A stretch of DNA of 64,000 nt from Schmidtea polychroa (taxonomy: Eukaryota), in assembly GCA_044892525.1 (NCBI GenBank), contig CM097885.1, positions 2,234,001 to 2,298,000 of the forward strand. The letters run 5' to 3'. Below, in pieces: positions 8,168-52,169 of this stretch. The notes under the pieces are model-generated. The model did not search any database. It saw nothing but the letters and a program-made list of their open reading frames with translations, and had not been told where the DNA came from. Numbering within the stretch: the stretch's first letter is position 1; each line of letters starts with the position of its first letter. A program made the translations under genes and the position numbers.

Positions 8168-8887
8168 ACCGATTTGTCATAAACTGTTTTCTTCATGATA
8201 GATTCGACAAACAGATGATGGCCTTGATTGACAGCCAATTCCAGAAATGACAGCTCGCCCTAATCAATATCAATACAAATCCAAATAATTATTTGACCTT
8301 ACGATTCTGCGTTGCCCATTGATAATGTGAGCAGAATTGAATATCTTGAACCCGCTCATGTGCCCCTGAGTGATGCAGCGATAAAGGATGCACTGAAATT
8401 TATTTATTGATTTATTCAAATAATCAGCTCACTTCTCTCATTAAATTTGCATTTTTGTCCATTTTTGCTGTCAGCAATTCAATTGCATTATTGATTTCCT
8501 ATTGGTGAGAATATTAATTATATCAATCAATAAATCAATCAAACTTTATCATTAATCGGTTTGTCAAGGATTAATTTAATAATCTTATCAGCATTGGACT
8601 CGATTGCTCTCTCCAGCACAGCCAATCCAGTCTAAATATCAATTATTAACCATTCAGAATATCACAAATTTACATAAATATTCTGCATTATGAAATCAGA
8701 AGATTTGAACAAATAACCAAATGCAATTGCATCATCCCGTTCAACAGCACGAAATAACTGAAATATTTATTCAAATTTACTTATTGTAATAAATGCACTT
8801 TTTGAACAGTTTTGCCCTTAGCCAGTAATTCCACGCAATCAGCACGTTTATTTTGCTTTGCTAAATCCAGCGGACTCTTTCCTTCCT
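8168..8887 (-). CDS. Further ankyrin-repeat gene exons, probably the same gene as 5080-5957 and 1-181
   Basis: EGKSPLDLAKQNKRADCVELLAKG, LFRAVERDDAIAFGYLF and GELSFLELAVNQGHHLFVESIM, separated by short GT-AG introns. Connection to the other exons is inferred. Confidence 0.65.
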
Positions 8888-8944
8888 AAATAAATAATCC
8901 AATCAAAATCCAATCATCACAATTGAGTGAATTATTGTGCTAAA

Positions 8945-9960
8945 ACTTATGGATCCATTGGCTATGAAAGGAGGAACAGTAACGATTGACAATTTCTTTA
9001 CCAGCTTACCACCAGCACAAAATTACTAGCTAAAAAACTACACTAATTGGAACTATACGTGGAATCAAAAAAGGTTTGCCGAAGGTTTTGAAACATAAAA
9101 GGATGACATGGCGCGTTTTGCAACATTACTTAATAAATCATGACGTTGTTCTCACCCAAAAGTAAACCGAAAGAGAAAGTTCCATTATTGAGTTTAAAAC
9201 ATAAATTCGCTTTCATTATATAATAACACAAAGTTCAGAGTAGATATATCTGAGCGAATGGCAAGGAAATGTAGCGTCAAATCTGGGCCTAGAATATGGC
9301 CGCTTCAAGCACCTTTCAATATGCTAGGCATAGCTGCGATGAATGCATCGATACCATATAAGGGAACTGCAGCAGATAACATATCAATATGCTAGGCCTA
9401 GCTACAATGAATGCCTCGATACTATATAAGGGAACCGCAGCAGATAGCATATCAATATGCTAGGGCTAGCTGCAATGAATGCCTCGATACCATATAAGGG
9501 AACCGCAGCCGATAACATATCAAGAAATGATTTCCTATTTCAGCTTGCAGACGAATTTGCTTCCCAATACAAAAATCAGAAAGTGTATCACCAGTAAATT
9601 TATCGACACCTTCAAATAGCCTCCATCTCACGCGTAAATGGCGTATGATTGGATATTGGAATATTAATAAAATCACAAATTTCCCTATGAAATGTAAAAT
9701 AATTGATTGTAAAAATGTAACGAGTAATTATTGTCATTGCTTTTAATGAATTATTTCCAGTTTAATAATGAATATTATATTATAATTATATTTATTTATT
9801 ATTTGATAATATGGCAGCGTATGTAAGGCTACTTTATAAATGTTATTTGCTAATCAATCGCTTCTGTTTTCGGAGCAAGATATTATATTTGATGGCCCAT
9901 TGAAGTCATTATGACTGTTGCTGGTAGCAATTGCTGTGATTGTTATTGGCCGTTCTAGTG
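8945..9960 (+). mobile_element. piggyBac transposase 3' remnant with an internal 68-bp triplication
   Basis: GTVTIDNFFTS, TLIGTIR, YNNTKFRVD..MARKCSVKSGPRIWPLQ..NMLGIAAMNA are piggyBac DDD-domain motifs. A 68-bp unit is repeated at 9317, 9385 and 9453. Confidence 0.85.
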
Positions 9961-18944: not shown

Positions 18945-19500
18945 TTAAACGCCAACAGTTGCATTAGCTGTGATTATTCTTATATCATGCATTGGTTTTT
19001 CATTTGAGTCGGTTTCTACAAGGCCCATCTGTTTCACAACGATCATCCCTGATGCTATTCGGCCAAATATGGTATGAGAATTGTCCAACCATGGTGTGGG
19101 TATTAACGTAATATAAAACTGAGATCCGTTAGTATTAGGACCAGAATTAGCCATTGATAGAATTCCGGCGCCTGTATGTTTTAATTCAGGATGAAATTCA
19201 TCTTCGAAATAATGCCCGTATATAGATGCTCCGCCATTACCAACTCCAGTTGGGTCACCTCCTTGAATCATAAAATTGCGAACAATACGATGGAATATAG
19301 TGTTATTATAATATCCTCTTTTTGTTAACTGATAAAAATTATTACATGTATTAGGAGCGTGATTCCAGTACAATTCTACAACAATTATACCTAAACTGTA
19401 AATATTATTAAATAATAGCACTTAAATATTATAATTACGTTGTATTAAGAGTAATAAATGGAGGCCTTTCAGAAGATTTAACTACTTTTAAATTTGTCAT
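18945..19500 (-). CDS. PPIL1: Peptidyl-prolyl cis-trans isomerase-like 1 (spliceosomal cyclophilin), 170 aa; exons 19439-19500 and 18945-19395
   Basis: MTNLKVVKSSERPPFITLNTTLGIIVVELYWNHAP...FHRIVRNFMIQGGDPTG...GAGILSMANSGPNTNGSQF. The ELYW and GAGIL motifs fit PPIL1. A 43-nt GT-AG intron keeps the frame. Confidence 0.92.
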
Positions 19501-19944
19501 TTTGAATAAAATTTAAATATTATTAAAACAATTTAGAAATATAAATTAAGTTATTTTTAAAATATTCTCAAATTTTAACTGATTCATGTTAAAAACATTA
19601 TATAAAATTTTATTTTATTTATTTAATTAATTTTTTATATGTAGTAAAATTTGGACATCTTTAATTTTTTAGATATTTCATTTATTTGAATTATAACAAA
19701 ATCTCGAAAATTATATTTTTAAGCAACAAAAATAATATTAGAAATAAGTAAAAATTGGTTAAATTTAAAATTAAAAAATTTAGAAATACAATTCTGAAAA
19801 AAATTAATATTTTTACAAATTAAATAAAATTTGCAAAAGTTAAAAATTGATTTATTATAAAATTCGCCTAGCAGACGTTTAAAAGCCCAAAAATATATTT
19901 AAATGATCTAATTGAATAACGAATATTGTCCGCTATATAGTATA

Positions 19945-20171: not shown

Positions 20172-23100
20172 TATATTTTATTTATCACTCGCCGCTATTT
20201 ACTTCAAACTTTGATGATAAGATCTTTCATATACTGGATTTCATAGAGTAAAATAAAAACTCAAAATTATAAAATCGGAATTTCCTGACGTAATATTAAC
20301 AAAATCAACTTACAGTATTTTGGGATTATTTCGCTAGATATCTTACAAAACTAGATTTATTGTTTAATGAAAGTTCGAGTGATTATTTAGTTCTTTTCTT
20401 AAGGAGATAATTGTCCTTGACCTCAAGAGGTAATGATATCACAATTTAATCAATCCATTCTTTAAATTTCCAACTTTAATACGACTGATTCTTAAGAAAA
20501 TGGTCTTTCTAATAAAATTAATTATTTAAGCTGTAGCGCTAAATCAAAATTAACATATTATTATAATAAAGCAGTTTATTTATATAATACTGCATTTAAT
20601 ATTATCTTTATTTTTCTTGGCCTTCTTTTTGACTCGAACATTCCGGGTCGAGGCTTGCAGTACTTCTTCTGTACAAGTGTTATGGCTGGTATTCTGAAGA
20701 TCCGAGCTGCTAAAGCTGGGTACTTGTTCAACTTTAGCGTCAGTGTGGATTCAGTTCGTAATTCTATGATTTTCTGGGACTTTTTCAGGTAGTAATTTTG
20801 AGGTCTTTGATAATATTTTTGAAGATTGTAAGAATTCGGACTTAGAATTGCTTTTGTATGGATATATTGTAGAAGTTGATTTGGAAATACCGAAAGTAGG
20901 TAGATAGTAACCCACGGGAACAATTACCCCCCCCCCCCCCCCGGCGGGGGAGGGGGGGTTTGTTCCCAAATTTTTATTACGCAATTGTTCCCAACTCATT
21001 TTTTTGCTTTCAGGGAATTTTAGTCCAAATTTTTTTTTATCACATTATAGTGAGGGGGTCTCGATGGTCCTGGGATTTTCAATACAAAAAATTTTTTTCA
21101 ATACAAAAATCCGACTACCACTAAAAAAGCATGGATTTTTCTAGGTCAATTCAGGTGGGTCTCCTTGGTCCTGGGATTTTCAATACAAAAAAAATTTTTC
21201 AATACAAAAAGCTGGTCTACACTAAAAAAGCCAAGGATTTTTCAGACTATAGTGAGGTGAGTCTCCTTGGTCCTGAGAAATAGGTGGTCTACACTAAAAA
21301 CGTGGTAAATTTTTCAATTAAAGTAAATAATGGTCCAAATTTTAAAATTAAAGTAAATTATGGTTCTAAAAATTAAATTATAGTAAATTATGGCTCAAAT
21401 TTTTAAATTACAGTAAATTATGGTCAAACATTTTAAATTAAAAAAAACAATGGTTCAAATTTTTCAAATACAGTAAATTATGGGTCTAAAAATTAAATTA
21501 CAGTAAATAATGGTTCTAAAAATTAAATTAAAGTAAATTATGGTTCTAAAATATTAAATTACAGTAAATTATGGTCCAGATTTTTCAATTAAAGTAAATA
21601 ATGGTCCAAATTTTTAAATTAAAGTAAATTTAAGTTCTTAAAAATTAAATTACAGTAAATAATGGTCCAAATTTTTAAATTAAGTAATCAATGGTAAAAA
21701 ATTTTAAATAAGTAAATTAAAGTAAGATTTTAAAATTTAATTACAAAATAATAGAAGGTGTTTGAGAATTGAAATTTTTTAATGAAATTTTTTATGAAAT
21801 AATTTTTAAGTAATTTTTAATTGAAATTTTAATGAAATATTTTTCAATGGTAATTTTTAATGGAAATTTTTATGGAATAATTTTTTAAGTAATTTTTAAT
21901 GTAAATTTTTATGAAATATTTTTCAATGATAATTTTAGATGGAAATTTTTAAGATAATTTTTAATGAAAATTTTTATGAAATATTTATCAAAGACAAATT
22001 TTAATAATAATTCAACAACAAACCAACAACTTAGTACCAACAACCAGTAACTTACGAACATGTATTAACAACCAGATACCTACAACTAGTTACTAACAAC
22101 TAGTTACATGATACTAAGTAAATACAACCACCTAACAAGTACTAACAACCAAAAACAAGCAACCAACCAGGTACCAGTTACCAACTACTAAGTACCTACA
22201 ACCAACTAGTTACCTGATACCAAGTACTTACAACTAAATACTAACAACCAGTTACCTGATACCTAGTACTTACAACTAGTTACTAACAACCAAAAACAAG
22301 CAACCAACTAGGTACCAAGTACTAACAACCAAAAACAACTAGCTAACAACTAGATACCAAGTACCTACAACCACCTACCTATTAACTAGCTACCAAGTAC
22401 TAACAACTAACAACAACCAGGTACTAGATACCAAGTACTAACAACCTACAACAACTAGGTACTAAGCATTATCAACCAAGTACCTAAAACCACCTAACAA
22501 GTACATACAACCAACATCAACCAGGTACCTACAACTAGATACTAACAAACAGTTACCAAGTACCTACAACCACCTACCCATTAACTAGCTACAACCAGCT
22601 AACAACTAGCTACCAAGTACTAACAACCAACAACCAGCTAACAACTAACAACCAGATACCTACTACTTACAACCAACAACTAAGTACTAACAACCAGCTA
22701 ACAACTAGATACCAGGTACTAAGCATTATCAACCAAGTACCTACAACTAGATACTAACAACTAGATACCAAGTACCTACAACCATCTACCTATTAACTAG
22801 CTACTAGTTACTAACAACTAGATACCAAGTACATACAACCAACATCAACCAGGTACTAAGCATTATCAACCAAGTACTAACAACCAAGTACAAGATACCT
22901 AGTACTGTCAACTAGATACCAAACACTTACAACCAGATGACCACATGAAATTATTGGTTAAATATGAAAATAAGGGTTATAATTAGTTGTTTAGTAAATT
23001 ATGGTGTAAAATTAAGTAATAAAGCATAAATAGGTAAATTAAGGATAAGTAAATTAAAGTTAATTAAGGTCCAAATTTTAAAAATAAGTAATCAATGTTC

Positions 23101-23299
23101 TAAAAAATTAAATTAAAGTTAAATAAGTAAATTAAAGTAATAATTTTTAAAGAATTTAATTAAAGTAATAATTTTTAAATAAGTAATGTAATAAGTAAAT
23201 TAAAGTAAGATTTTTAAATTTATTATCAAAAGATTGAATAACCACCAACTTTTTTGAGAAATGTAATTTTTAATGAAAATTTAAATGGGAATTTTAATG

Positions 23300-23341
<42 letters not shown>

Positions 23342-23758
23342 TAATAATAATTCAACAGTTACCAACAATCGGTTACTAAATATTTTTAACTAAGTGCTAA
23401 CAAATAAGTACTTTCAACATGATACCACGTACTAACTCTCAAACAACCAGATACTTACAACGAACTACTAAATATTCTTCATTGTATTTTATGAAATGCT
23501 TTTTAAATTAATTTTTTATACATCTTCTATAATAATTTTAATTACAATCAGTAGAAAAACCTTTTCAAATTTAACAAAAAATGTTGATTTTCATCAAAAA
23601 AACCACAACTCATCACCACGTGAAATTCAAAATAATTTAAATGAAAGACTAATGAATTCTAATTTACAAAACATTCTTCTTTTAATTGATAACTTATTAT
23701 CGCAATGTAAAAATCGCATTCAATAAATACTTATTGTTGATCAGTTTTATTATATATA

Positions 23759-26700
23759 CTCTGAGTCTATCCGACAGGATGTTTTGACCCCCTAAGGGTA
23801 CAGGTCGTAAGGGTACTGGTCGTATGGGTATTAGTCGTAAGGGTACTGGTCGTAAGGGTACTGGTCGTAAAGGTACTAGTCGTAGGGGTATTGATCACTC
23901 TCAATCCCCACCTACTCATTAATTAGCTACCATGTACTAACCACTAGGTTTCAAACAACTAAATACTAAACACTTACAACCATGTACTAACAACCACCAT
24001 CAAAACCCATCGAGAAATTAACAAATATCAACCTACAACTATATAACAACAATCAGTAAACAACACTGTACCAACTACCAAATACAAAATATTCTTCATC
24101 GCATACACTATTTTCTTATCAAAATCTAAAAAGTCAACCAACTACTTACAACCAACAACTATGTACTAACAAATTGATCTTTAAAAGCAAATACTCTTCA
24201 CTTGAAAAATTGGATGAAAAATTATTTGAACTCAAGGCATCAATAACTAGGTAAAAATTGATTAAATTATTGTAAAAAATTTAAATTATTCAAAATAAAT
24301 ATCATAAAAATTTAATTAATGGACAAGAAAAAAATTCTAATCATCCAGTAAATAAAAAAAATATTGATCATTCAAGTTGAATCAACTAAGATAATAAATT
24401 AATAAGATAAGATCTAGTAGATAATTGATTTAGATTGAATAAATTAATTGAAATAAAATTAATTTTAAGTATTTTTTTAAGAGTAATACATGTACTCGAA
24501 TTGATTGACTGATTTCTCAATATATTCAAAAAATCAGTATAAATTCATTACAAATATTGGATGAAAAATTAATTGAACTCAAGACATCAATAACTTGGTA
24601 AAAATTGATTAAATAATTGTAAAAATTTAAAATTTTCAAAATAAATGTCATAAAAATGTAATTAATGGACAAGAAAGAACTTTAAATTCTAGTCATTGAT
24701 CATTCAAGTTAATATGAATCAACTAAGATAATAAATTAATAAGAATTTTGAAATAAGATCTAGTAGATAATTGATTTAGATTGAATAAATTAATTGAAAT
24801 AAAATTAATTTTAATTATTTTTTTAAAAGTAATACATGTACTCAAATTGATTGACTGATTTCTCAATATATTCAAAAAATCAGTATAAATTCATTACAAT
24901 TATCAAAGTCAGCAATCTACAATAAAAATAATTATCATTAAATTCCAAAAGAGACTAGATAACTAATGATAACATCTAACAAACCAGTAAATTCATTCAA
25001 ATGACAATAATTGGTATATCCAAGTGAATTCTCCAATAAAATCATCTAAAAAGCATCATTTTCCCCCTAAATATATCAATATTTAAAGATTGGTATTTTA
25101 ATGATAAATACTTGTTAAAGATCATATATTCTCCTCAAACTAATAAGATTCCTTAAAATCCCTTAAATGACTATATTTCAACCCTTAATTCATATTATTA
25201 CAAATAATTCATTAAAATCATCTAAAAAGCATCAAATTTCCCTGAAATAACTATCTTTAAAGATTATTATTTTATCGATAAATATCCTTAAAAGGTTATA
25301 TATTTACCTCAGACTAATAAGATTGCTTAAAATCCCCTTTAAATGACTTTAATTCCTATTATCACGAATATTTCCTTATAAAACATGTAAAATCATTAAC
25401 CCTAAAGAATTTATAAAATCTAATGACAAAACCGGTTATAATAAAATTTTTGTTAATCACTGTACTCGAAATATAAAATAAATATAACTGACTAGGTCCC
25501 ATTAAAAGATTAAATTTATCCATTCAATAAAATATATTTCTTCAAATGATCATTTTTACCGATATTCAACCGATTTAATTACTAATTAAAATCAAGATTT
25601 CTTCCAATAAAGATCAATTTTATTTAGTTGTTGTCGATGTTTTAAGTCCATATTTCTAAACTTTTGTCATTCTCCGCCTAAATAAAGATAAAAATAAATT
25701 AAAGTTGATATCAATCCCATTTATCTGTAAAGTTTTCATTGTCAAAACCAAGTAAATCGATCATTATCTCTACTTAATAAAACATAAGTCTAATTAATAT
25801 ACAATGGATTAATCACAACCTAATAAAACGATATAATTATTATTGATACATAACTGACTAATTGACATTTCCCTTAAAACAATGATATTTTACCAACATC
25901 ACCATTAAAAAAAAAATCATATATTCCCATCTTAACCCATCCTTCATTAAATTCAATCGACTATGTCTTCCTTAAAAGATTATATTTTCCCATCTTATCC
26001 GATCTCTTATTAAAGTCAATCGACTATATCTCCCTTACAATGATATATTCCCATCTTAACTCATCTCTCATTAAATTTAACCGACTATATCCCCCCCCCC
26101 ATAAAAACATATATTCCCATCTCTCATTAAATCTAATCGATAATATCCCATCTTATCCGATCTCTCAGCAAATATTTCTACCCTTTTAAACATCTATCCG
26201 ATTATATCCCTTAATTTCCCTAAAGATTCCACCCACTTGAACCCTTTAATATATATCAATCCTCTTAATATCCTTAGAGAACTTCAAAAAGTATGAATTT
26301 TCATAAACTGTTAAAGACACCAGGCATTCTTCCATTGAAATAATTTAGAAGCTAAATAATAAGAGCCCACTAACCAATCAAAATCATGGAATGGCAGGGG
26401 AAAAAATATATTACGTTGCGGTATTTTAAAATTAAAATTTATTTTAAAAACACATTTTGACGCTAAAGGCGACTTATGTAACAGACATAATAAACTGATT
26501 ATTTTCTACAAATATTTATCATCAAATACCTAACTGGAGATGATATATATTGTTTGATCATAATTCTTCATCGATTCAACCAATCATTTTCAAGCAATAA
26601 CAACAAACTAAATTTCTGTATATCCTACAAGTAAATTTAAAGTCCTTGATAAAGTTAACTGGTTTCTTAGCTTATGTTTTTTAAAGTGCATCAATGTGTA

Positions 26701-27477
26701 AATATTCTTAGAAAATTATTGAAAAATTATTTAGTCAAATATATTACAAAGTTATCATCAAAAATCACTTAATTATTAACCTAATTGTCAATGAAATTAA
26801 TTTTTATTTAAAAACTATTCAATAAAATACAACTAATTATCAAGAAATTAATTAAATTTGTCACCATTAAAACTTTTAATCAGTCAACATGAAATTCTTA
26901 GAAAATTATTCAATATCCTCATAAAAATTTATCCTACCCCTTGATTATTGTACAAACTCTAATTATTAACCTCATTAAAAATAATTTTTATTTAAAATTA
27001 AAAATACATCCAATTATCAAGAAATTAATTAAATTTATCTTAGAACTAACTTTAAATTATTAAATATTCATCCAATAAACATGAAATTTGCAAAAATGTT
27101 AGAAATCTACAAAAATAATAGAAATTCACCAAAAAACGATAAAAATTCACAAAAATGATAGAAATCCACAAAAATTATGGAAATTCATGAAAATGATGGA
27201 AATCCACAAAATAGATAGAAAAGCACAAAAATGATAGAAAATTACAAAAATTGATGGAAATTCACAAAAAAACGATAAAAATTCATAAAAATGATAGAAA
27301 TTTACTTGAATAAAACCATCAACTCTAAAAATTATCAATACCTTAAACAACAAATTTGCCTAAATAACCATTCAAATAAAAGTATTAAAAGTACCCTTGC
27401 GACATGTTGAATGTGAGTAGTACCCTTGTGAGCAATACCCATAGGGGGACAGAATATTTTGTCGGATAAAGTCAGAG
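23759..27477. mobile_element. Nested 3.7-kb non-coding TIR element in the left arm
   Basis: Imperfect ~42-bp TIRs: CTCTGAGTCTATCCGACAGGATGTTTTGACCCCCTAAGGGTA versus reverse complement CTCTGACTTTATCCGACAAAATATTCTGTCCCCCTATGGGTA. Flanked by TATATA; 15-bp GGTCGTAAGGGTACT subterminal repeats. Confidence 0.75.
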
Positions 27478-28083
27478 TATATATTAATTAACTCATTCTT
27501 CATTGAATCAGTAAAATTATCATAAATTTCGATAAAAATTCTAAAGTGGTAAGCAATGAAAAGAGAAATATTCTTTAAACTTTGATAAAATTAACAATGA
27601 AGGTGGTAAGAATCTTCATTAAAATGAGGAAATTACTCGATGATAAATTCAAATGGGTGAAAATAATTGGTAGAATAATTCATTAATGGAGGTAAATACT
27701 GAGAATGGGCATAGATAACATGAAGGTTGATAAGAATGGAAATATATTAATTGAATTTATTTAAAATTATTTCATAAAATTAACACTTTAATAAAAAAAA
27801 ATCTTAAAACAAATATTTGTGGGAATGTTTTAAGTGAATAATAAATCAAAATCGGCGGAATATAAGTAGAAAATCGGGGTGGGGGTTATAGGCGAATAAT
27901 TAATGGAAATTCGAGGGGATATAAGTGAATAATTAATGGAGAATCGGGGGAATATAGGAGATTAAATAGTGGGATAATGAGAATCGGTGGAATATAAGTG
28001 AGAAGGATATGTAATTTAAACTATTTTATTACGTAACAACGCGCGTCTATTTTATTACATAGCAAGCTGTGAATGGTATTTTA

Positions 28084-28982
28084 TTGAGAATTATTGATTA
28101 GGTCTTTTTTTTTTAATTTTTGAATAGGTACTTTAATGCCTTAATAATTTAAATGTTTTGATTTACACTAAATAATTTCTAAATCAATTACCCTTTTCAA
28201 TCAAAATAAGTTAATATTCAAATATAAGTCTTAGAAAATATAAATTTTATAAGTTTTTAAATTTTCAAATAATGTAAATAAAAAATTAATCTATTACCAG
28301 TTATATACCTTTAAACTTATTGATGGAATAAGACAAAAGTTTTGTTGTATAAGTCCTTTAATATTGTAATAATTATTTATTAATAAATTTATTATTTTAC
28401 GTTAAATATTTCAAAAACAATTATCATATTATTAATTATATTACCCTTTTTAATCAAAATAAGATAAATATTCAAATAGATGACTTCTATAAAATACAAT
28501 TAAAATTAAATACTTTACACTAAATTTAAAAATATAAATTCTATAAGTAAATGTAAATAAGAAATTAGTGTATTAGCTGTTATAGACTTTTAAACTTATT
28601 GATTAGGCAGTAGAAAGTTACTTTTTTTTTCAAAAAGTCCTTTAATATTGTATTCTATTCGTTATTAAATTTACTATTTTACACTAAAATATTTCGAAAG
28701 CAATTATCATGAAAAAAAAACAATTATCAACCAAAATAATTTAAATGTAATACTCAAATATTTGTCTTAAAAATTAAATCAAAATTAAATACTTCACAAA
28801 ATTTAAGTAAAGTTTTTAAATTCTCAAATAAATGTTAACAATATATTAATTAATTAATCATTATATACTTTTTAAACTTATCATTGGAATTAAACGATCG
28901 AATGATATTCAAAATATATACAATTTAAAAAATAAAATTAAAATTAAATTACATACTAGGTAAAATGTTGGTAAAATGATGG
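28084..28982. repeat. Unique 899-bp central spacer of the palindrome, with ~3 degenerate 250-280-bp AT-rich repeats
   Basis: Arm complementarity stops at 28083/28983. A TTACCCTTTT.AATCAAAATAAG unit recurs at ~28189 and ~28441, and more degenerately at ~28724. Confidence 0.75.
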
Positions 28983-29588
28983 TAAAATACCATTCACAGC
29001 TTGTTATGTAATAAAATAGTCGCGCGTTGTTACGTAATAAAATAGTTTAAATTACATATCCTTCTCACTTATATTCCACCGATTCTCATTATCCCACTAT
29101 TTAATCTCCTATATTCCCCCGATTCTCCATTAATTATTCACTTATATCCCCTCGAATTTCCATTAATTATTCGCCTATAACCCCCACCCCGATTTTCTAC
29201 TTATATTCCGCCGATTTTGATTTATTATTCACTTAAAACATTCCCACAAATATTTGTTTTAAGATTTTTTTTTATTAAAGTGTTAATTTTATGAAATAAT
29301 TTTAAATAAATTCAATTAATATATTTCCATTCTTATCAACCTTCATGTTATCTATGCCCATTCTCAGTATTTACCTCCATTAATGAATTATTCTACCAAT
29401 TATTTTCACCCATTTGGATTTATCATCGAGTAATTTCCTCATTTTAATGAAGATTCTTACCACCTTCATTGTTAATTTTATCAAAGTTTAAAGAATATTT
29501 CTCTTTTCATTGCTTACCACTTTAGAATTTTTATCGAAATTTATGATAATTTTACTGATTCAATGAAGAATGAGTTAATTAATATATA

Positions 29589-32500
29589 CTCTGACTTTAT
29601 CCGACAAAATATTCTGTCCCCCTATGGGTATTGCTCACAAGGGTACTACTCACATTCAACATGTCGCAAGGGTACTTTTAATACTTTTATTTGAATGGTT
29701 ATTTAGGCAAATTTGTTGTTTAAGGTATTGATAATTTTTAGAGTTGATGGTTTTATTCAAGTAAATTTCTATCATTTTTATGAATTTTTATCGTTTTTTT
29801 GTGAATTTCCATCAATTTTTGTAATTTTCTATCATTTTTGTGCTTTTCTATCTATTTTGTGGATTTCCATCATTTTCATGAATTTCCATAATTTTTGTGG
29901 ATTTCTATCATTTTTGTGAATTTTTATCGTTTTTTGGTGAATTTCTATTATTTTTGTAGATTTCTAACATTTTTGCAAATTTCATGTTTATTGGATGAAT
30001 ATTTAATAATTTAAAGTTAGTTCTAAGATAAATTTAATTAATTTCTTGATAATTGGATGTATTTTTAATTTTAAATAAAAATTATTTTTAATGAGGTTAA
30101 TAATTAGAGTTTGTACAATAATCAAGGGGTAGGATAAATTTTTATGAGGATATTGAATAATTTTCTAAGAATTTCATGTTGACTGATTAAAAGTTTTAAT
30201 GGTGACAAATTTAATTAATTTCTTGATAATTAGTTGTATTTTATTGAATAGTTTTTAAATAAAAATTAATTTCATTGACAATTAGGTTAATAATTAAGTG
30301 ATTTTTGATGATAACTTTGTAATATATTTGACTAAATAATTTTTCAATAATTTTCTAAGAATATTTACACATTGATGCACTTTAAAAAACATAAGCTAAG
30401 AAACCAGTTAACTTTATCAAGGACTTTAAATTTACTTGTAGGATATACAGAAATTTAGTTTGTTGTTATTGCTTGAAAATGATTGGTTGAATCGATGAAG
30501 AATTATGATCAAACAATATATATCATCTCCAGTTAGGTATTTGATGATAAATATTTGTAGAAAATAATCAGTTTATTATGTCTGTTACATAAGTCGCCTT
30601 TAGCGTCAAAATGTGTTTTTAAAATAAATTTTAATTTTAAAATACCGCAACGTAATATATTTTTTCCCCTGCCATTCCATGATTTTGATTGGTTAGTGGG
30701 CTCTTATTATTTAGCTTCTAAATTATTTCAATGGAAGAATGCCTGGTGTCTTTAACAGTTTATGAAAATTCATACTTTTTGAAGTTCTCTAAGGATATTA
30801 AGAGGATTGATATATATTAAAGGGTTCAAGTGGGTGGAATCTTTAGGGAAATTAAGGGATATAATCGGATAGATGTTTAAAAGGGTAGAAATATTTGCTG
30901 AGAGATCGGATAAGATGGGATATTATCGATTAGATTTAATGAGAGATGGGAATATATGTTTTTATGGGGGGGGGATATAGTCGGTTAAATTTAATGAGAG
31001 ATGAGTTAAGATGGGAATATATCATTGTAAGGGAGATATAGTCGATTGACTTTAATAAGAGATCGGATAAGATGGGAAAATATAATCTTTTAAGGAAGAC
31101 ATAGTCGATTGAATTTAATGAAGGATGGGTTAAGATGGGAATATATGATTTTTTTTTAATGGTGATGTTGGTAAAATATCATTGTTTTAAGGGAAATGTC
31201 AATTAGTCAGTTATGTATCAATAATAATTATATCGTTTTATTAGGTTGTGATTAATCCATTGTATATTAATTAGACTTATGTTTTATTAAGTAGAGATAA
31301 TGATCGATTTACTTGGTTTTGACAATGAAAACTTTACAGATAAATGGGATTGATATCAACTTTAATTTATTTTTATCTTTATTTAGGCGGAGAATGACAA
31401 AAGTTTAGAAATATGGACTTAAAACATCGACAACAACTAAATAAAATTGATCTTTATTGGAAGAAATCTTGATTTTAATTAGTAATTAAATCGGTTGAAT
31501 ATCGGTAAAAATGATCATTTGAAGAAATATATTTTATTGAATGGATAAATTTAATCTTTTAATGGGACCTAGTCAGTTATATTTATTTTATATTTCGAGT
31601 ACAGTGATTAACAAAAATTTTATTATAACCGGTTTTGTCATTAGATTTTATAAATTCTTTAGGGTTAATGATTTTACATGTTTTATAAGGAAATATTCGT
31701 GATAATAGGAATTAAAGTCATTTAAAGGGGATTTTAAGCAATCTTATTAGTCTGAGGTAAATATATAACCTTTTAAGGATATTTATCGATAAAATAATAA
31801 TCTTTAAAGATAGTTATTTCAGGGAAATTTGATGCTTTTTAGATGATTTTAATGAATTATTTGTAATAATATGAATTAAGGGTTGAAATATAGTCATTTA
31901 AGGGATTTTAAGGAATCTTATTAGTTTGAGGAGAATATATGATCTTTAACAAGTATTTATCATTAAAATACCAATCTTTAAATATTGATATATTTAGGGG
32001 GAAAATGATGCTTTTTAGATGATTTTATTGGAGAATTCACTTGGATATACCAATTATTGTCATTTGAATGAATTTACTGGTTTGTTAGATGTTATCATTA
32101 GTTATCTAGTCTCTTTTGGAATTTAATGATAATTATTTTTATTGTAGATTGCTGACTTTGATAATTGTAATGAATTTATACTGATTTTTTGAATATATTG
32201 AGAAATCAGTCAATCAATTTGAGTACATGTATTACTTTTAAAAAAATAATTAAAATTAATTTTATTTCAATTAATTTATTCAATCTAAATCAATTATCTA
32301 CTAGATCTTATTTCAAAATTCTTATTAATTTATTATCTTAGTTGATTCATATTAACTTGAATGATCAATGACTAGAATTTAAAGTTCTTTCTTGTCCATT
32401 AATTACATTTTTATGACATTTATTTTGAAAATTTTAAATTTTTACAATTATTTAATCAATTTTTACCAAGTTATTGATGTCTTGAGTTCAATTAATTTTT

Positions 32501-33305
32501 CATCCAATAATTGTAATGAATTTATACTGATTTTTTGAATATATTGAGAAATCAGTCAATCAATTCGAGTACATGTATTACTCTTAAAAAAATACTTAAA
32601 ATTAATTTTATTTCAATTAATTTATTCAATCTAAATCAATTATCTACTATATCTTATCTTATTAATTTATTATCTTAGTTGATTCAACTTGAATGATCAA
32701 TATTTTTTTTATTTACTGGATGATTAGAATTTTTTTCTTGTCCATTAATTAAATTTTTATGATATTTATTTTGAATAATTTAAATTTTTTACAATAATTT
32801 AATCAATTTTTACCTAGTTATTGATGCCTTGAGTTCAAATAATTTTTCATCCAATTTTTCAAGTGAAGAGTATTTGCTTTTAAAGATCAATTTGTTAGTA
32901 CATAGTTGTTGGTTGTAAGTAGTTGGTTGACTTTTTAGATTTTGATAAGAAAATAGTGTATGCGATGAAGAATATTTTGTATTTGGTAGTTGGTACAGTG
33001 TTGTTTACTGATTGTTGTTATATAGTTGTAGGTTGATATTTGTTAATTTCTCGATGGGTTTTGATGGTGGTTGTTAGTACATGGTTGTAAGTGTTTAGTA
33101 TTTAGTTGTTTGAAACCTAGTGGTTAGTACATGGTAGCTAATTAATGAGTAGGTGGGGATTGAGAGTGATCAATACCCCTACGACTAGTACCTTTACGAC
33201 CAGTACCCTTACGACCAGTACCCTTACGACTAATACCCATACGACCAGTACCCTTACGACCTGTACCCTTAGGGGGTCAAAACATCCTGTCGGATAGACT
33301 CAGAG
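29589..33305. mobile_element. Mirror copy of the nested 3.7-kb TIR element in the right arm
   Basis: Reverse complement of 23759-27477, with the same TA-flanked CTCTGA...TCAGAG ends. Confidence 0.75.
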
Positions 33306-33722
33306 TATATATAATAAAACTGATCAACAATAAGTATTTATTGAATGCGATTTTTACATTGCGATAATAAGTTATCAATTAAAAGAAGAATGTTTTGTAA
33401 ATTAGAATTCATTAGTCTTTCATTTAAATTATTTTGAATTTCACGTGGTGATGAGTTGTGGTTTTTTTGATGAAAATCAACATTTTTTGTTAAATTTGAA
33501 AAGGTTTTTCTACTGATTGTAATTAAAATTATTATAGAAGATGTATAAAAAATTAATTTAAAAAGCATTTCATAAAATACAATGAAGAATATTTAGTAGT
33601 TCGTTGTAAGTATCTGGTTGTTTGAGAGTTAGTACGTGGTATCATGTTGAAAGTACTTATTTGTTAGCACTTAGTTAAAAATATTTAGTAACCGATTGTT
33701 GGTAACTGTTGAATTATTATTA

Positions 33723-33761
<39 letters not shown>

Positions 33762-36700
33762 CATTAAAATTTCCATTTAAATTTTCATTAAAAATTACAT
33801 TTCTCAAAAAAGTTGGTGGTTATTCAATCTTTTGATAATAAATTTAAAAATCTTACTTTAATTTACTTATTACATTACTTATTTAAAAATTATTACTTTA
33901 ATTAAATTCTTTAAAAATTATTACTTTAATTTACTTATTTAACTTTAATTTAATTTTTTAGAACATTGATTACTTATTTTTAAAATTTGGACCTTAATTA
34001 ACTTTAATTTACTTATCCTTAATTTACCTATTTATGCTTTATTACTTAATTTTACACCATAATTTACTAAACAACTAATTATAACCCTTATTTTCATATT
34101 TAACCAATAATTTCATGTGGTCATCTGGTTGTAAGTGTTTGGTATCTAGTTGACAGTACTAGGTATCTTGTACTTGGTTGTTAGTACTTGGTTGATAATG
34201 CTTAGTACCTGGTTGATGTTGGTTGTATGTACTTGGTATCTAGTTTTTAGTAACTAGTAGCTAGTTAATAGGTAGATGGTTGTAGGTACTTGGTATCTAG
34301 TTGTTAGTATCTAGTTGTAGGTACTTGGTTGATAATGCTTAGTACCTGGTATCTAGTTGTTAGCTGGTTGTTAGTACTTAGTTGTTGGTTGTAAGTAGTA
34401 GGTATCTGGTTGTTAGTTGTTAGCTGGTTGTTGGTTGTTAGTACTTGGTAGCTAGTTGTTAGCTGGTTGTAGCTAGTTAATGGGTAGGTGGTTGTAGGTA
34501 CTTGGTAACTGTTTGTTAGTATCTAGTTGTAGGTACCTGGTTGATGTTGGTTGTATGTACTTGTTAGGTGGTTTTAGGTACTTGGTTGATAATGCTTAGT
34601 ACCTAGTTGTTGTAGGTTGTTAGTACTTGGTATCTAGTACCTGGTTGTTGTTAGTTGTTAGTACTTGGTAGCTAGTTAATAGGTAGGTGGTTGTAGGTAC
34701 TTGGTATCTAGTTGTTAGCTAGTTGTTTTTGGTTGTTAGTACTTGGTACCTAGTTGGTTGCTTGTTTTTGGTTGTTAGTAACTAGTTGTAAGTACTAGGT
34801 ATCAGGTAACTGGTTGTTAGTATTTAGTTGTAAGTACTTGGTATCAGGTAACTAGTTGGTTGTAGGTACTTAGTAGTTGGTAACTGGTACCTGGTTGGTT
34901 GCTTGTTTTTGGTTGTTAGTACTTGTTAGGTGGTTGTATTTACTTAGTATCATGTAACTAGTTGTTAGTAACTAGTTGTAGGTATCTGGTTGTTAATACA
35001 TGTTCGTAAGTTACTGGTTGTTGGTACTAAGTTGTTGGTTTGTTGTTGAATTATTATTAAAATTTGTCTTTGATAAATATTTCATAAAAATTTCCATCTA
35101 AAATTATCATTGAAAAATATTTCATAAAAATTTACATTAAAAATTACTTAAAAAATTATTCCATAAAAATTTCCATTAAAAATTACCATTGAAAAATATT
35201 TCATTAAAATTTCAATTAAAAATTACTTAAAAATTATTTCATAAAAAATTTCATTAAAAAATTTCAATTCTCAAACACCTTCTATTATTTTGTAATTAAA
35301 TTTTAAAATCTTACTTTAATTTACTTATTTAAAATTTTTTACCATTGATTACTTAATTTAAAAATTATTACTTTAATTTACTTATTTAAAATTTTTTACC
35401 ATTGATTACTTAATTTAAAAATTTGGACCATAATTTACTGTAATTTAATATTTTAGAACCATAATTTACTTTAATTTAATTTTTAGAACCATTATTTACT
35501 GTAATTTAATTTTTAGACCCATAATTTACTGTATTTGAAAAATTTGAACCATTGTTTTTTTAATTTAAAATGTTTGACCATAATTTACTGTAATTTAAAA
35601 ATTTGAGCCATAATTTACTATAATTTAATTTTTAGAACCATAATTTACTTTAATTTTAAAATTTGGACCATTATTTACTTTAATTGAAAAATTTACCACG
35701 TTTTTAGTGTAGACCACCTATTTCTCAGGACCAAGGAGACCCCCCTCACTATAGTGTGAAAATTCCATGCTTTTTTAGTGGTAGTCGGATTTTTGTATAG
35801 AAAAAATTTTATTTGTATTGAAAATCCCAGGTCCATCGAGACCCCCTTATTTCTCAGGACCAAGGAGACTCACCTCACTATAGTCTGAAAAATCCTTGGC
35901 TTTTTTAGTGTAGACCAGCTTTTTGTATTGAAAATATCCTGAGACCTTAAATTACCATGCTTTTTTAGTGTAGACCAGCTTTTTGTATTGAAAAATTTTT
36001 TTTGTATTGAAAATCCCAGGACCAAGGAGACCCACCTGAATTGACCTAGAAAAATCCATGCTTTTTTAGTGGTAGTCGGATTTTTGTATTGAAAAAAATT
36101 TTTTGTATTGAAAATCCCAGGACCATCGAGACCCCCTCACTATAGTGTGATAAAAAAAAATTTGGACTAAAATTCCCTGAAAGCAAAAAAATGAGTTGGG
36201 AACAATCGCGTAATAAAAATTTGGGAACAAACCCCCCCCCCCCCCCCCCGGGGGGGTAATTGTTCCCGTGGGCTACTATCTACCTACTACCGAAAGAACT
36301 TCATAACTTATTGGACGATTTTCAAATAGCTAGAGAAAAGGTGTGAGTATCTAAAGTGGAGAAATAATTGTTGACATATTATTCAAAGCAGAATTTTGTA
36401 GTGCATTGGCGTTTACCGAAAATATTTCTTTTCTTAGTGATGCAGTAGTAATATTTTTTCGAAATCATATTTTCTTCGGTGTGTGATAGTTTTCCATTTA
36501 CAAATGTTTTATTATTTTTGTTGTTTGCTAGAGTATCTCTCAATGTTAAAGATTTTTGTTCTTTATAAATTGTAAGTCCAATGCATTTAAGTTCTTTCAG
36601 GATTTTGAATTCGAGTAAAATAGAAGTAGATATTCTAACATACAGGTTCTACAAAAATCCAGCTCACAAAGAAATATTTATGCACCAAATTTTAGCGTTT

Positions 36701-45774: not shown

Positions 45775-48769
45775 GTACTAATTTATAAGTACTGATATTT
45801 TTTTCAAATGGGAAAAATATACAAAGAAAATTTTATCTTAAAATCCCTTTCAGAAAATCCCCTAATAAATATAAACTATTATAATTACTTTATTAATATT
45901 ATTTATTATTTATAATCATTAAAAAGCAAATAATTACGCTCCCCGTCATGATGGATGATAACAGTTGGGTATGAGTTACCGATTTTATCGCGTTTATAAT
46001 GTTTTTTATTCAATAATTTTTATATTCTCGGTTTTTTCCGCTTTTATTTATATTTTCTATTATTTTATTTCTCTTCCAATTTATTTATTTCTCGCAACTT
46101 TTTCCTATTTTTCTCTTATGATTTAAATTCTTCACATTTTCCTTGTTGTTTCTTCGTTTTATTAAATCAACAATTAAATCAACAAATAATTTGATTGGGA
46201 TATCTGAATAAATTGGAAGCTTGATAATTAATTGTTACTTTTTATGATTATTAGTGAACAATAAATTTTTATTCTTCTAGCTTCTGCGCAGCATAGTCAT
46301 TGGCCTCTTGTTTTTGGCCGTCCAGAATTTCAGTTGGCTGACAAGTAGAGAGTAGTGTTGCCACCAAGCTCACCTGCCTGCTCACATCCAGTCACTATAT
46401 ACAATACCAATAAGGCCCACCGCCATGGGTTATCAGGGAGTTAGTGTCAATATCCTTGTGGTCATCTGACAATAGGACACTTTTACTTTATCCCTAGGCG
46501 TTGCTGCAATCTGGTCTTCAGGACTACTGAACAATTTGAGGGGCACATATTTGTCAAAAATTAGTTTTCGTAAATAATTTCTATCGACTGATTTAATTTG
46601 ATTAATTGACTCGTCTGGCAAAGGCGTGTGGACCGATTCTGGTGCTTATTAATTATAGCTTTGTGGATTTTTAGATAAGTATCTTACCTTATAAATGACA
46701 TTTGGGCACAGTTCATCTACTACTGCCCCGTGGACGTAGCCAACGAAACACGAACACTCGACCTGAACTTGTGGCTGCTATTTATGAGGGATATCCAATT
46801 TAACCAAATCAAAAGGAACAATCTATTCAAAAATACATGTATTCATAAAATATTCTTTGCCATAGTGAGCCGTTACACGGCCTTAACAAGATCTATATAA
46901 ATATTATACTATATAATATAATATTATATTATATATAAATGGGCGGTCATTAGCGAATAAGGATCAATCAGAACACAATTATGGCCAATCAAATATCTCC
47001 TATAATTGCACATTAGCTGGAATATCGCAGTCTACTCTATCTCATTCCAAGAGTCAATCAAAATTCATGCAATCAGCTAATACTTCTACTTAGCAATCAG
47101 GCTCTATTAATCAATCTCAGACGAGTAAAGCAAATTCGATGCCATGTTATTATTATCAAGAGTAACTGTATTCGGCCCCGAATAGTTTTAGTGTTGACTC
47201 TCATAGACCAACATCTTCATCCATTATAATTCGCGAAATATGTAACAAATCCTAACAATAATATGAACCCGAATAAATTTGTTATCCAACCACTACACAA
47301 ATCACTTATGATCCAAGAAATAACTAACAAATAATTTGATTGGGATATCTGAATAAATTGGAAGCTTGATAATTAATTGTTACTTTTTATGATTAGTAGT
47401 GAACAATTAAATACATTTTATTGATTAATCAAAGAATACCGTGTTTTTGAGTTATAATAAATAAATTATATTTATTTATGGATATTAAAAAAATCATGTT
47501 GTTTTACTTTTTTAAGTAAATACTATTTTTTGAATGTATTCTCTTGGAGTTAAAATTTAAAAGTGTAAATTATTTAAGAAAATTGTAATTTAAAGAAAAC
47601 AATAAAATGTTTCCTCGTTTGTTTTGCGATCCCATTAATATTTGTGATTTCGTGACTTCATCATCTAATTCTATAAAAGCAAGGAAACCAGAATTGCTTA
47701 GGATAAACACAACACTTGCTAATGATTTCTCAAAATTGTTCAGTTGAAACTATGAGCATAAATTATTTTTAATTAATCTTGGCCATTACCGATAAAAATG
47801 TTTATATTTTTACTTTTTATTTTTAATTTATTTTAAATTTCGAAATATTTTTTCTTATTAAGAAATATTTTCAATTAAATTTCTCAATAATTTATACGCT
47901 GTTTTCAAATTTTGATTTAAATAATTTTATAAAATTTTAAAAATTATTAATTTTATTTTTTTACAAAAATGTTTTGAAATTAAGTTACAAATAAATAAAA
48001 AAAACACAGAAAAATTAACATTAATCTTAAAACCAATATTTATAAAATATTTGTTTATCTACATCAAAAACCAAATTTTAAATATTTGTATCATTGAAAT
48101 ATCCAATTATCCGATCGTGGATCATTCCCATTATATTTATAACCATAACGAGATCATTAGGTCAAAGCCCAAAGCCTCACAATTGCTGAATAATACATTA
48201 ATAACACATTTAGCGTTACCCAGTAAAATTTTATTCAAATCTTTTTTTCTTAAAAAATTGATTGAAAATTTTTGTTATTTTGTTAAAAAGTATTTGAAAT
48301 AACAATATTGACTTTTTGTTGAATTTCTATTTTTGCTCTGATGATTTTGAATTCCTTTCTAATCGGTTCAAATAAATTCTAATGTCAGATAAAATTTTTT
48401 AAATTAATATTTTTTAATTTTAATAATTTATGTAAAATATTTATTTTTATCTTTTGATCTATTTTTAATTTGGATTTATTTAACTTTCCATTAAAATTTT
48501 ACTTTTTGTTATCAAATTATAATTTAAATAATTTTGTAAGATTTAAAATAAATGAGAAAAACGCTGAAAATTAACATTAATAATATTTCGAATTGCGCTC
48601 AAAGCTAAAATACAATATTTATAAATTGTTTGTTTATCTAGATTAAAATACAAATTATAAATATTGAAATTGTAAACGTCAGAGGAAATAATTAATATAA
48701 TAAGTATGATTTATGATTTATGTTGTAAAATGTTGAAATATTTTGATAATTTTGTTAATTTTAGATAAA

Positions 48770-52113: not shown

Positions 52114-52169
52114 GCTATTCCTGAAAATCAATATTATCAACAAATATATTACACATTATTAGTAGGTAG

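Follow-up and report, generated by a model that had tools for sequence, protein, structure and literature searches.

The window analysed here, a 64,000-nt stretch of the Schmidtea polychroa genome, contains a palindromic element whose features are listed in Table 1. Its inverted repeat, of 7.2 kb per arm, makes up 94% of the element, and the two arms are 99.66% identical. A preliminary description of this DNA had reported both the palindrome with its 899-bp spacer and the ACCGAA direct repeat at its borders, and the two were recovered at the positions given in the table. When one arm is globally aligned with the other, 7,093 columns match, 24 are mismatches and 261 are gaps; 17 of the mismatches and 231 of the gap columns fall in the outermost 1 kb, which consists of tandem repeats. 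Identity peaks near the centre and reaches its minimum at the tips. The element begins with AGTAGGTAGATAGTA(A/G)CCCACGGGAACAATTACC... and carries the complement at its other end. The subterminal C/G hairpin (-23.5 kcal/mol when folded as DNA, z -3.1) also occurs in an autonomous Maverick copy of the same genome (see below).

Table 1. Features of the palindromic element and its flanks in the window (positions from the first letter of the window), and location of two related elements.
Feature	Position	Strand	Description
Left flank	20806..20894	+	pPolB relic of another Maverick, aa ~992-1020 of the autonomous copy's pPolB (tblastn)
Left target-site duplication	20889-20894		ACCGAA
Palindromic element	20895-36288		15,394 bp; termini AGTAGG.../...CCTACT; 6-bp duplication ACCGAA; gene-less
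Left arm	20895..28083	+	7,189 nt
Left terminus	20895..20927	+	33-mer beginning AGTAGGTAGATAGTA; 1 mismatch to the commonest family form
Subterminal hairpin	20916..20967	+	GGGAACAA-TTA-C(n)/G(n)-TTGTTCCC; 21 nt from the tip
Maverick-homologous part of left arm	20895..23351	+	matches the ~2-kb terminal inverted repeat of the autonomous copy
101-bp repeats	21046-21275		within the Maverick-homologous outer left arm
~30-bp repeats	21307-21719		within the Maverick-homologous outer left arm
A/C-rich repeat block	about 22013-23046		interrupts the Maverick-homologous outer left arm; no such block in the autonomous copy
Inner left arm	23352..28083		~4.7 kb, AT-rich, non-coding; mirror at 28983-33714
Spacer (loop)	28084..28982		899 bp, asymmetric; degenerate ~280-bp direct repeats
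Right arm	28983..36288	-	7,306 nt; reverse complement of the left arm
Right terminus	36256..36288	-	33-mer, perfect match to the family form
Right target-site duplication	36289-36294		ACCGAA
Right flank	36289..36445	+	same pPolB relic onward, aa ~1018-1073
Autonomous copy	C1:182205295-182223155		17.9 kb; duplication AAATAA; same tips; ~2-kb terminal repeats
Verified pPolB palindrome	C1:9092710-9106037		13.3 kb; duplication TTTTAA; arms 99.58% identical

As noted earlier for this locus, the element has no recognisable genes. None of the stop-to-stop ORFs starting inside it is longer than 103 aa, none of the 25 ORFs of at least 50 aa in the left arm and spacer has a Pfam match at E<=0.01, and tblastn with the proteins of the autonomous copy finds no match inside it. 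The element is therefore not an autonomous member of the Maverick/Polinton group.

Maverick/Polinton elements, reportedly the subject of Kapitonov and Jurka in 2006 and of Pritham et al. in 2007, are regarded as integrated viruses akin to adenoviruses. Their virions and replication intermediates are not known to have been observed. Intact vertebrate Mavericks measure 16.9 +/- 1.7 kb, have terminal inverted repeats of 46-1,447 bp and show the end motif 5'-AG(T)...(A)CT-3', according to Barreat and Katzourakis 2021 (PMC8097293). The window element resembles Mavericks/Polintons in its 6-bp duplication, AGT ends and terminal inverted repeats, and its total length is like that given for intact elements in that study (PMC8097293), but it differs in being gene-less and in having 7.2-kb arms.

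A genome search with the terminal 33-mer, allowing up to 3 mismatches, returned 656 forward and 667 reverse matches (1,323 in total) whereas the reversed sequence, taken as control, returned 0 forward and 0 reverse, indicating a family of ends far beyond chance. All 11 elements read have AGTAGG.../...CCTACT termini. The Maverick/Polinton-type character attributed to these ends, and the expectation that autonomous Polintons would share them, were borne out by the 17.9-kb autonomous copy. This copy encodes a pPolB (PF03175, 113 bits) in a 1,432-aa ORF, an rve integrase, an adenain-type protease (PF00770, 25.3 bits) and an A32-type ATPase (PF04665, 29.3 bits); as for capsid genes, further ORFs of 338, 344 and 408 aa are present, of which the first two were scanned and have no Pfam match. 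Three further pPolB matches lie 2.7-3.1 kb inward of the same terminus. The 33-mer is identical between the autonomous copy and the window family, and the whole ca. 2-kb terminal repeat of the former is covered in the outer ca. 2.5 kb of each window arm, with 73-89% identity in the longer alignments. The same repeat is represented in full in all 8 other copies fetched. Nothing of the coding interior of the autonomous copy was found in the window element or in these 8 copies, and no similarity to it was detected in the inner ca. 4.7 kb of the window arms. From the autonomous element, the window element keeps only the cis-acting terminal inverted repeat, namely the 33-nt tip, the C/G hairpin and the subterminal repeat arrays, and it very probably represents a non-autonomous Maverick derivative mobilised in trans.

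All 8 other copies are palindromes that lack genes and measure 10.9-20.3 kb, and arms in palindromic copies reach 8.6 kb with 99-100% identity. Seven of the 8 have their own perfect 6-bp duplications, which differ from one another as had been predicted, and the duplication is 6 bp long in 10 of the 11 elements examined, a set that includes the autonomous copy and the pPolB palindrome. Five of the 8 copies have a spacer conserved to 84-99%, and a 30-mer taken from the window spacer has 585 matches in the genome (279+306). Paralogous sites are uninterrupted in the 3 cases examined, with flanks overlapping by exactly 6 bp, in agreement with the earlier view that integration took place intact; an allelic empty site was not found. 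The window element went into its site in one piece and duplicated 6 bp of the target. Its left junction (20722-20923) is bridged with zero differences by a 202-nt contig of a public run.

These observations bear on two alternatives. Fold-back chimeras of long reads are able to yield near-perfect palindromes, and one copy (E3) has mirrored flanks and no duplication, so that an assembly artefact had to be considered. Its probability is nonetheless negligible when set against hundreds of copies at distinct sites with their own duplications, an asymmetric 899-bp spacer that is conserved between copies, the 24 substitutions and 261 gap columns that separate the window arms, the 3 paralogous empty sites and the junction bridged by short reads. 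The second alternative is a conventional foldback transposon (FB-, P/Galileo-, MULE- or hAT-type) that would be Polinton-like only at its tips. In the foldback (FB) elements known from Drosophila the duplication is 9 bp long, in elements of Galileo type it is 7 bp, and both depend on other transposases. The window family is like them in its long inverted arms partly made of tandem repeats, its mostly gene-less copies and its variable arm length, which are classic foldback traits, and unlike them in its 6-bp duplication and Maverick ends. This reading is extremely unlikely, because 6-bp duplications prevail in the elements examined, because the tips and the whole terminal repeat recur in a copy with genes for pPolB, rve integrase, protease and ATPase, and because the 9 palindromic copies that were read from end to end contain no transposase of another family between their tips. 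The 6-bp duplications, and a Maverick as the only coding partner found, exclude a foldback element of the MULE, P or hAT kind, which would have its own transposase and duplications of 8/9 bp.

The window element shares its arm/spacer junctions with copies E1, E2, E3 and E6. The window copy descends from one old palindrome, since these junctions are common to subfamilies that diverge by 7-10%. Only the outer ca. 2.5 kb of each of its 7.2-kb arms is recognisably Maverick and it therefore did not arise from a fresh copy-back. Quartet counts between the window element and E1 gave 398 symmetric differences, 0 arm-specific ones and 32 singletons; the corresponding figures are 122, 0 and 32 for E1/E6, 93, 0 and 78 for E1/E2, and 18, 0 and 23 for the window element and E3. 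Both arms of the gene-less family evolve in concert. Large genomic palindromes with arm-to-arm gene conversion, such as sex-chromosome palindromes and plastid inverted repeats, are single fixed loci. The present elements are similar in that the arms remain near-identical even as lineages diverge in the structure as a whole, and in their short unique spacer, but they form a mobile family in which concerted evolution proceeds along transposing lineages. As a natural experiment, they allow one to study how inverted arms of 7 kb stay identical across 7-10% sequence divergence.

A sister family, in which the ends are of a third terminus variant, carries pPolB in each of its two arms. The loop of its verified member (Table 1) is ca. 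900 bp long and unrelated to the spacer of the window family; loops that differ between families indicate that palindromes arose more than once. Among 100 matches listed for a pPolB probe, 60 form 30 inverted pairs and none form same-strand pairs, while among 100 listed for an inner-arm probe 78 form 39 inverted pairs. As a class, the design of "one Maverick end copied back" is supported by this sister family, whose arms both contain the terminal repeat and pPolB. The proposal that one Polinton end was copied back, initially made for the window element, stands in this respect but is not demonstrated for the window family, in which the inner ca. 4.7 kb has no detectable Maverick origin. The palindromes as a set comprise a gene-less branch and a branch carrying the polymerase end twice, and palindromic derivatives appear to outnumber conventional copies in the S. 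polychroa genome.

Median end-to-end distances for the three terminus variants are 15.5, 16.4 and 14.7 kb, as compared with 17.9 kb for the autonomous copy. These rest on the first ca. 100 perfect matches listed per variant, with pairs not individually checked; among the matches listed, putative end-pairs range from 6.9 to 38 kb, with 59 of 82 within 12-19 kb and 0 of 82 under 6.5 kb. The medians (14.7-16.4 kb) are consistent with the suggestion that length may be held near that of the helper. A constraint imposed by packaging is possible, if somewhat doubtful, and the clustering could alternatively result from recent bursts from a few masters of ca. 15 kb.

Overall, the window element is likely a gene-less, non-autonomous, high-copy Maverick/Polinton derivative that goes back to one ancestral palindrome. 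The retroviral-type integrase of autonomous copies would insert it in trans, and their protein-primed polymerase would replicate it from either tip. Its palindromic shape would stem from one ancestral event, the likeliest candidate being a copy-back (strand switch) made while a linear Maverick-derived DNA was replicating by strand displacement, which would yield the order tip-arm-loop-arm'-tip; the arms may then have been kept alike by snap-back pairing of both arms followed by repair or gene conversion. For replicative copy-back itself as the origin of the palindromes, the chances are about even.

Another origin of such a Maverick derivative lies in host chromosomal processes, in which terminal repeats that were long already grew inward, or fold-back/break-induced repair took place at an internal inverted repeat, and the arms were afterwards kept alike by ordinary gene conversion from arm to arm, as happens in other long palindromes of genomes. 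No viral copy-back, packaging or interference is involved in that scheme. In copy E3, which has no duplication, the palindrome continues for 1,884 bp (99.8%) past both tips into host DNA, and this extended symmetry, which stops at an 88-bp solo terminus fragment bearing the C/G hairpin, needs chromosome-templated DNA synthesis. It is a mark of chromosomal fold-back/break-induced repair, so host processes alone can extend palindromes. The centre of copy E4 is a mini-element of ca. 292 bp with inverted, not direct, flanks, and points the same way, as do the arm identity in the window element, highest at the centre and lowest at the tips, and the predominance of symmetric differences expected from continuing conversion. 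Chromosomal growth alone does not, however, account for arms that stop exactly at functional tips, and it leaves unexplained the origin of at least two families with unrelated loops, the duplication of precisely the pPolB end in hundreds of copies and the lack of short end-pairs among the matches listed. A purely host origin is rather unlikely.

Defective adenovirus genomes are said to be inverted duplications of one genome end (reportedly Daniell in 1976, and Daniell and Mullenbach in 1978). The palindromes would be like them in that the helper is a protein-primed, adenovirus-like replicon. More generally, they look like an integrated counterpart of the snap-back (copy-back) defective viral genomes treated in a review (PMC13506859). 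The likeness lies in one end being repeated in inverse orientation on either side of a short unique loop, for which the parental end is shown in the sister family, in identical tips that are here predicted to be replication-competent, and in a size near that of the helper genome. Snap-back genomes are transient infection products, unlike the palindromes, which are integrated, inherited and transposing, occur in hundreds of copies and show millions of years of concerted arm evolution; moreover, the inner arm of the window family is not recognisably viral, and all the forms observed are integrated copies. Extending the analogy, they might be endogenous snap-back defective-interfering genomes, that is Maverick satellites that arose by repeated copy-back, are replicated by the helper from two identical origins, are held by capsid packaging at ca. 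75-95% of the helper genome length, are inserted by the integrase and outnumber their helpers in the germ line, with transcripts acting as anti-helper dsRNA. This full scenario is speculative and on balance improbable.

Still less probable, though conceivable, is that the palindromes are chiefly sources of long hairpin RNA. Read-through transcripts would then form dsRNA spanning the Maverick terminal repeat, together with pPolB in the case of the sister family; autonomous Mavericks would be silenced through small RNAs made from it, an effect for which host or element would be selected. Arms of up to 8.6 kb at 99-100% identity have the geometry of hairpin-RNA loci, and pPolB is present in both orientations in the sister family; yet the behaviour of the copies, which have duplications, is that of a mobile family and not of a fixed locus.

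Under the copy-back reading, a large young set of genome-length palindromes would be the expected residue of elements that replicate by protein-primed strand displacement, make copy-back errors and are packaged in a capsid of limited size. The set found here matches this expectation and would therefore provide indirect genomic evidence on Maverick replication, as well as a tangible case in which to ask if endogenous viruses are accompanied by defective-interfering satellites. No published description of such palindromes was found in the literature, and repeat annotation pipelines probably overlook or misclassify them. Finally, a rough estimate from ca. 2,650 ends at ca. 15 kb per pair, which counts autonomous copies with the same ends too, gives ca. 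20 Mb, or 2-3% of the 781 Mb genome.

The element at window positions 20895-36288 is a palindrome of 15,394 bp whose arms enclose an asymmetric spacer of 899 bp, with arm identity dropping to random exactly at 28083/28084 and 28982/28983. In a repeat search, two inverted blocks with 100% identity measured 2,612 and 1,992 nt and one with 99% measured 1,403 nt; blocks near the tips were shorter and less perfect. Global alignment matched the two arms at 7,093 positions, with 24 mismatches and 261 gap columns; 17 of the mismatches and 231 of the gap columns fall in the outermost kilobase, made up of tandem repeats. This copy (hereafter the window copy) starts with AGTAGGTAGATAGTA... and ends with ...CTATCTACCTACT, and ACCGAA is found on both sides; an 8-bp duplication was ruled out by the other copies described below. 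The lack of a recognisable coding ORF, reported in the preliminary description, was borne out: no ORF starting inside the element exceeds 103 aa, all 25 ORFs of at least 50 aa in the left arm and spacer were without a Pfam match, and tblastn with the proteins of an autonomous relative (see below) gave no match inside it. The only Rfam matches in 20500-36700 (E<=1) were two mirrored mir-221-like ones, which scored 24.2 bits, below the gathering score of 46.6, and were taken as chance; SRP/7SL RNA was not matched. The right arm/spacer junction (window 28959-28988) lies within a short direct repeat, GGTAAAAT(N3-5)GGTAAAAT, that could be microhomology from an ancestral strand switch; one extra 11-bp unit of this repeat occurs in the window copy and one in another copy, E3.

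Coordinates and scores of features in the window and in the autonomous Maverick copy
Feature	Location	Strand	Length, score or remark
Left arm, window copy	window 20895-28083		7,189 nt
Right arm, window copy	window 28983-36288		7,306 nt; compared as reverse complement
Cyclophilin-like ORF	window 18948-19421	-	~1.5 kb from window copy
ORF pair with cysteine-rich Cx2C...CxC...Cx2C motif, three copies, and the long ORFs they surround	window 48737-49919, 52118-52900, 61418-62938, 53392-57779	+, -, +, -	
pPolB ORF, autonomous copy	L051:2169-6464	-	1,432 aa
rve integrase ORF, autonomous copy			35.5 bits
Adenain-type protease ORF, autonomous copy			25.3 bits
A32-type ATPase ORF, autonomous copy			29.3 bits
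TATA-binding-protein-domain ORF, autonomous copy	L052:5561-6073	+	171 aa; PF00352, 58.7 bits
Adenovirus core protein pX-matching ORF, autonomous copy	L052:4401-4784	-	PF05829, 27.6 bits
RING-finger ORF, autonomous copy			382 aa

The ends of the window copy are Maverick/Polinton ends and are shared with an autonomous Maverick. A genome search for protein-primed PolB (PF03175) returned 8,820 first-look candidates; 91 were scored, and every one lay above the cut-off, 88 of them with no internal stop. One match is located between two perfect copies of the terminal 33-mer of the window copy, at C1:182205295-182223155, and provides the gene-bearing Polinton with the same ends that the preliminary description had proposed to look for. 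This autonomous copy is 17.9 kb long, is flanked by the duplication AAATAA, has terminal inverted repeats of ~2 kb (outer 586 bp 98.6% alike, inner part 88%) and carries pPolB and integrase among other genes (see table). When its pPolB ORF was submitted to hmmscan, PF03175 was not listed, possibly because the repeat-rich N-terminal half upset the filters; the genome-wide search gave 113 bits at the same place, which is the figure relied on. Three more pPolB matches were found 2.7-3.1 kb inside the same terminus and in the same orientation.

The whole terminal repeat of the autonomous copy is represented in the window copy and in all eight other copies (E1-E8, see below), and none of its coding interior occurs in any of the nine. 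In the window copy the homologous sequence corresponds to the outer ~2.46 kb of each arm, broken by an A/C-rich repeat block, while the remaining ~4.7 kb per arm and the spacer have no match in the autonomous copy. A C-run/G-run hairpin located 21 nt from the tip is common to both elements (-23.5 kcal/mol, z -3.1). By its membership tests the window copy is a non-autonomous Maverick derivative and not an autonomous element, and it differs from foldback transposons in duplication length and in partner. Duplications of six bases, end motifs of the AGT type and a total length of around 17 kb are reported for intact vertebrate Mavericks, whose terminal repeats, however, measure only 46-1,447 bp (PMC8097293).

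In the 781-Mb assembly, which comprises four very large contigs, a 400-bp terminal probe produced 2,123 first-look candidates, of which 40 were scored and gave 86 matches. The terminal 33-mer, with up to 3 mismatches allowed, has 656 forward and 667 reverse occurrences, with none for the reversed control. Eight pairs of facing ends, 10.9-20.3 kb, were fetched (E1-E8) and all are palindromic, with an arm-to-arm likeness of 94-99.8%. They contain no ORF above 202 aa and, of the 15 ORFs of at least 120 aa, 14 are within ~1.5 kb of an end, in repeat arrays, the remaining one (122 aa) being in the repeat-rich centre of E8. As anticipated in the preliminary description, palindromic copies have different 6-bp duplications: seven of the eight have their own, perfect in each case (GACATT, TATGCT, AAAATC, ATATTA, AATGGG, TACAAG and ATAGTG). 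Three fetched loci forming a terminal subgroup of ~90% identity (L048-L050), of which the first 10 kb only were taken, were left out of all later counts; no Maverick gene was found in these first 10 kb, and ORFs of L048 are transposase-like by eye, a possible nested element.

The window copy is inserted in the relic of another Maverick's polymerase gene, pPolB residues ~992-1020 being found on its left and ~1018-1073 on its right. Three paralogous relics were inspected, and in each of them the left and right flank sequences adjoin without interruption, sharing exactly the six duplicated bases. The left junction of the window copy is bridged, with no difference, by a 202-nt contig of a public sequencing run. 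The insertion is therefore real and arrived as a unit, as had been suggested from the duplication. In another study, two runs (X5 and X6) yielded contigs that leave 20620-20781 uncovered and so do not bear on an allelic empty site; a third run (X7), which is putatively RNA, shows contigs of low depth over the terminal repeats. Overall, four of the 11 elements examined are inserted in other Maverick sequence (window 20806-20894 and 36289-36445; E4 flanks; L051 1-145; L058 1-810). The targets are a relic of pPolB, the gene for an ATPase, an array of ~30-bp repeats in another family member and a site next to the 408-aa and protease ORFs; self-nesting, target preference or the mere abundance of Mavericks may account for this.

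The window family derives from a single ancestral junction, with concerted evolution of its arms. Five of the eight other copies retain the 899-bp spacer at 84-99%, a 30-mer from it has 279+306 matches in the genome (control 0), and the arm/spacer junctions are identical in the window copy, E1, E2, E3 and E6. Three subfamilies, 7-10% apart in their arms, were distinguished: the window copy with E3; E1, E2, E5, E6 and E7; and E4 with E8. In four-arm alignments, sites were called symmetric when a state common to both arms of one copy was absent from both arms of the other. Symmetric sites numbered 398 for the window copy and E1, 122 for E1 and E6, 93 for E1 and E2, and 18 for the window copy and E3, with 32, 32, 78 and 23 singletons, respectively, and no arm-specific site in any comparison (one "cross" site in the last). 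The palindrome is thus older than the subfamilies, and nearly every later substitution was copied to the opposite arm. Elements of this kind are bounded, too, by a second terminus variant (...CCCACTGCAGCAATGAC; 438+430 matches), and the spacer probe lies at the centre of five pairs of this variant.

The palindromic design recurs in a second family, in which both arms carry pPolB. A 30-mer of the autonomous copy's polymerase gene has 613+581 matches in the genome; among the first 100 matches listed, 30 inverted (+/-) pairs with members 5.4-10.2 kb from each other account for 60, and 40 lie outside such pairs, 2 of the 100 forming one -/+ pair, with no same-strand pair within 15 kb. One palindrome of this sister family, copy B (C1:9092710-9106037; L058, L059), was examined in full. 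It measures 13,328 bp, has the duplication TTTTAA, sits within another Maverick and ends in a third terminus variant, AGTAGGTAGTTAGTGG... (234+224 matches in the genome). Its arms, of 6.2 kb each, are 99.58% alike, and each contains the terminal repeat and a pPolB that matches residues 376-1382 of the protein in the autonomous copy at 96% identity; the loop, ~900 bp, is unrelated to the spacer of the window copy and to the autonomous copy. Among the matches listed, at least eight third-variant pairs enclose a polymerase-probe pair. A probe located 160 bp from the inner arm end gave 538+552 matches and, among the 100 listed, 78 occur in 39 inverted pairs 0.39-1.74 kb apart, so that loop length differs among pPolB-bearing palindromes. 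Since the loop of the sister family is unlike that of the window family, palindromes arose more than once. The preliminary description had viewed the window copy as "one Polinton-like end copied back on itself": this is exactly the architecture of the sister family. The window family may have had such an origin, but no viral ancestry was detectable in the inner 4.7 kb of its arms. At the end of its arm, copy B has a run of C, with a few G after it in one arm, that resembles the subterminal hairpin and may mark where the polymerase stalls or switches. A related locus, L060, is collinear with the left arm of copy B and then with the loop, as would be expected if the loop continued a non-palindromic parent, but another palindromic copy would give the same picture; that a search on coordinates only found no perfect inverted partner there is weak evidence. 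Palindromic or foldback non-autonomous Mavericks/Polintons were not found described in a full-text literature search, the founding paper and Repbase being outside its scope.

In Mavericks, the integrase generates a duplication of 6 bp, and the protein-primed polymerase begins synthesis from the tips. By analogy, such an integrase would have made the duplication of the window copy and such a polymerase would start at its tips. Our preferred account is a strand switch by the polymerase during strand-displacement replication of linear Maverick-derived DNA, which would yield a tip-arm-loop-arm'-tip product with two identical origins and two identical integrase sites. The displaced strand of this palindrome would fold back as a duplex, and repair of mismatches there would homogenise the arms. 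Host fold-back or break-induced repair between arms could also explain this homogenisation, and two copies bear on it. In E3 (C1:190775087-190795278; L015, L036, L037, L053, L054), mirror symmetry extends 1,884 bp (99.8%) past both tips, and inverted flanks take the place of a target-site duplication. On the left, the precise limit of the symmetry is the inner edge of a solo terminus fragment of 88 bp that bears the C/G hairpin (C1:190775087-190775174). The arrangement is suggestive of chromosomal fold-back or of break-induced synthesis, with one arm as the primer. In E4 (17.5 kb; L038/L039), the centre is a mini-element of ~292 bp (element coordinates 8706-8997) whose flanks are inverted, not direct. 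Both structures need chromosome-templated synthesis, so that fold-back or break-induced repair between arms does occur, and the palindromes may owe their origin and upkeep to host repair as well as to viral replication. One side of the E4 mini-element carries a Maverick terminus of variant 2 and the other a degenerate terminus; synthesis in this subfamily may have turned around at a short inverted repeat. A short MITE-like family, suggested by this centre, was rejected as its terminus variant pairs at 10-29 kb, not ~0.3 kb. As to the preferred strand switch, its proposed tip-arm-loop-arm'-tip product, seen here in integrated copies, may be likened to snap-back defective viral genomes (PMC13506859). 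Adenovirus defective genomes made of an inverted left end offer a second parallel.

Element length was estimated end to end from adjacent facing ends among the matches listed (roughly 100 per search, perfect matches). Median lengths among these matches were 15.5 kb for terminus variant 1 (31 pairs, one being the autonomous copy itself), 16.4 kb for variant 2 (13 pairs) and 14.7 kb for variant 3 (38 pairs). Among the same matches, 59 of the 82 pairs fall within 12-19 kb and none is below 6.5 kb; the autonomous copy measures 17.9 kb.

Elsewhere in the window, one of the three Cx2C...CxC...Cx2C ORF pairs is inverted; these pairs are TRAF/RING-like by eye and surround two long ORFs (1,054 and 427 aa), which are retrotransposon pol/gag-like by eye. 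Finally, the cyclophilin-like ORF is overlapped at 19000-19395 and 19439-19518 by a contig from a putative RNA run; the 43 bases that this contig skips are possibly a short intron.
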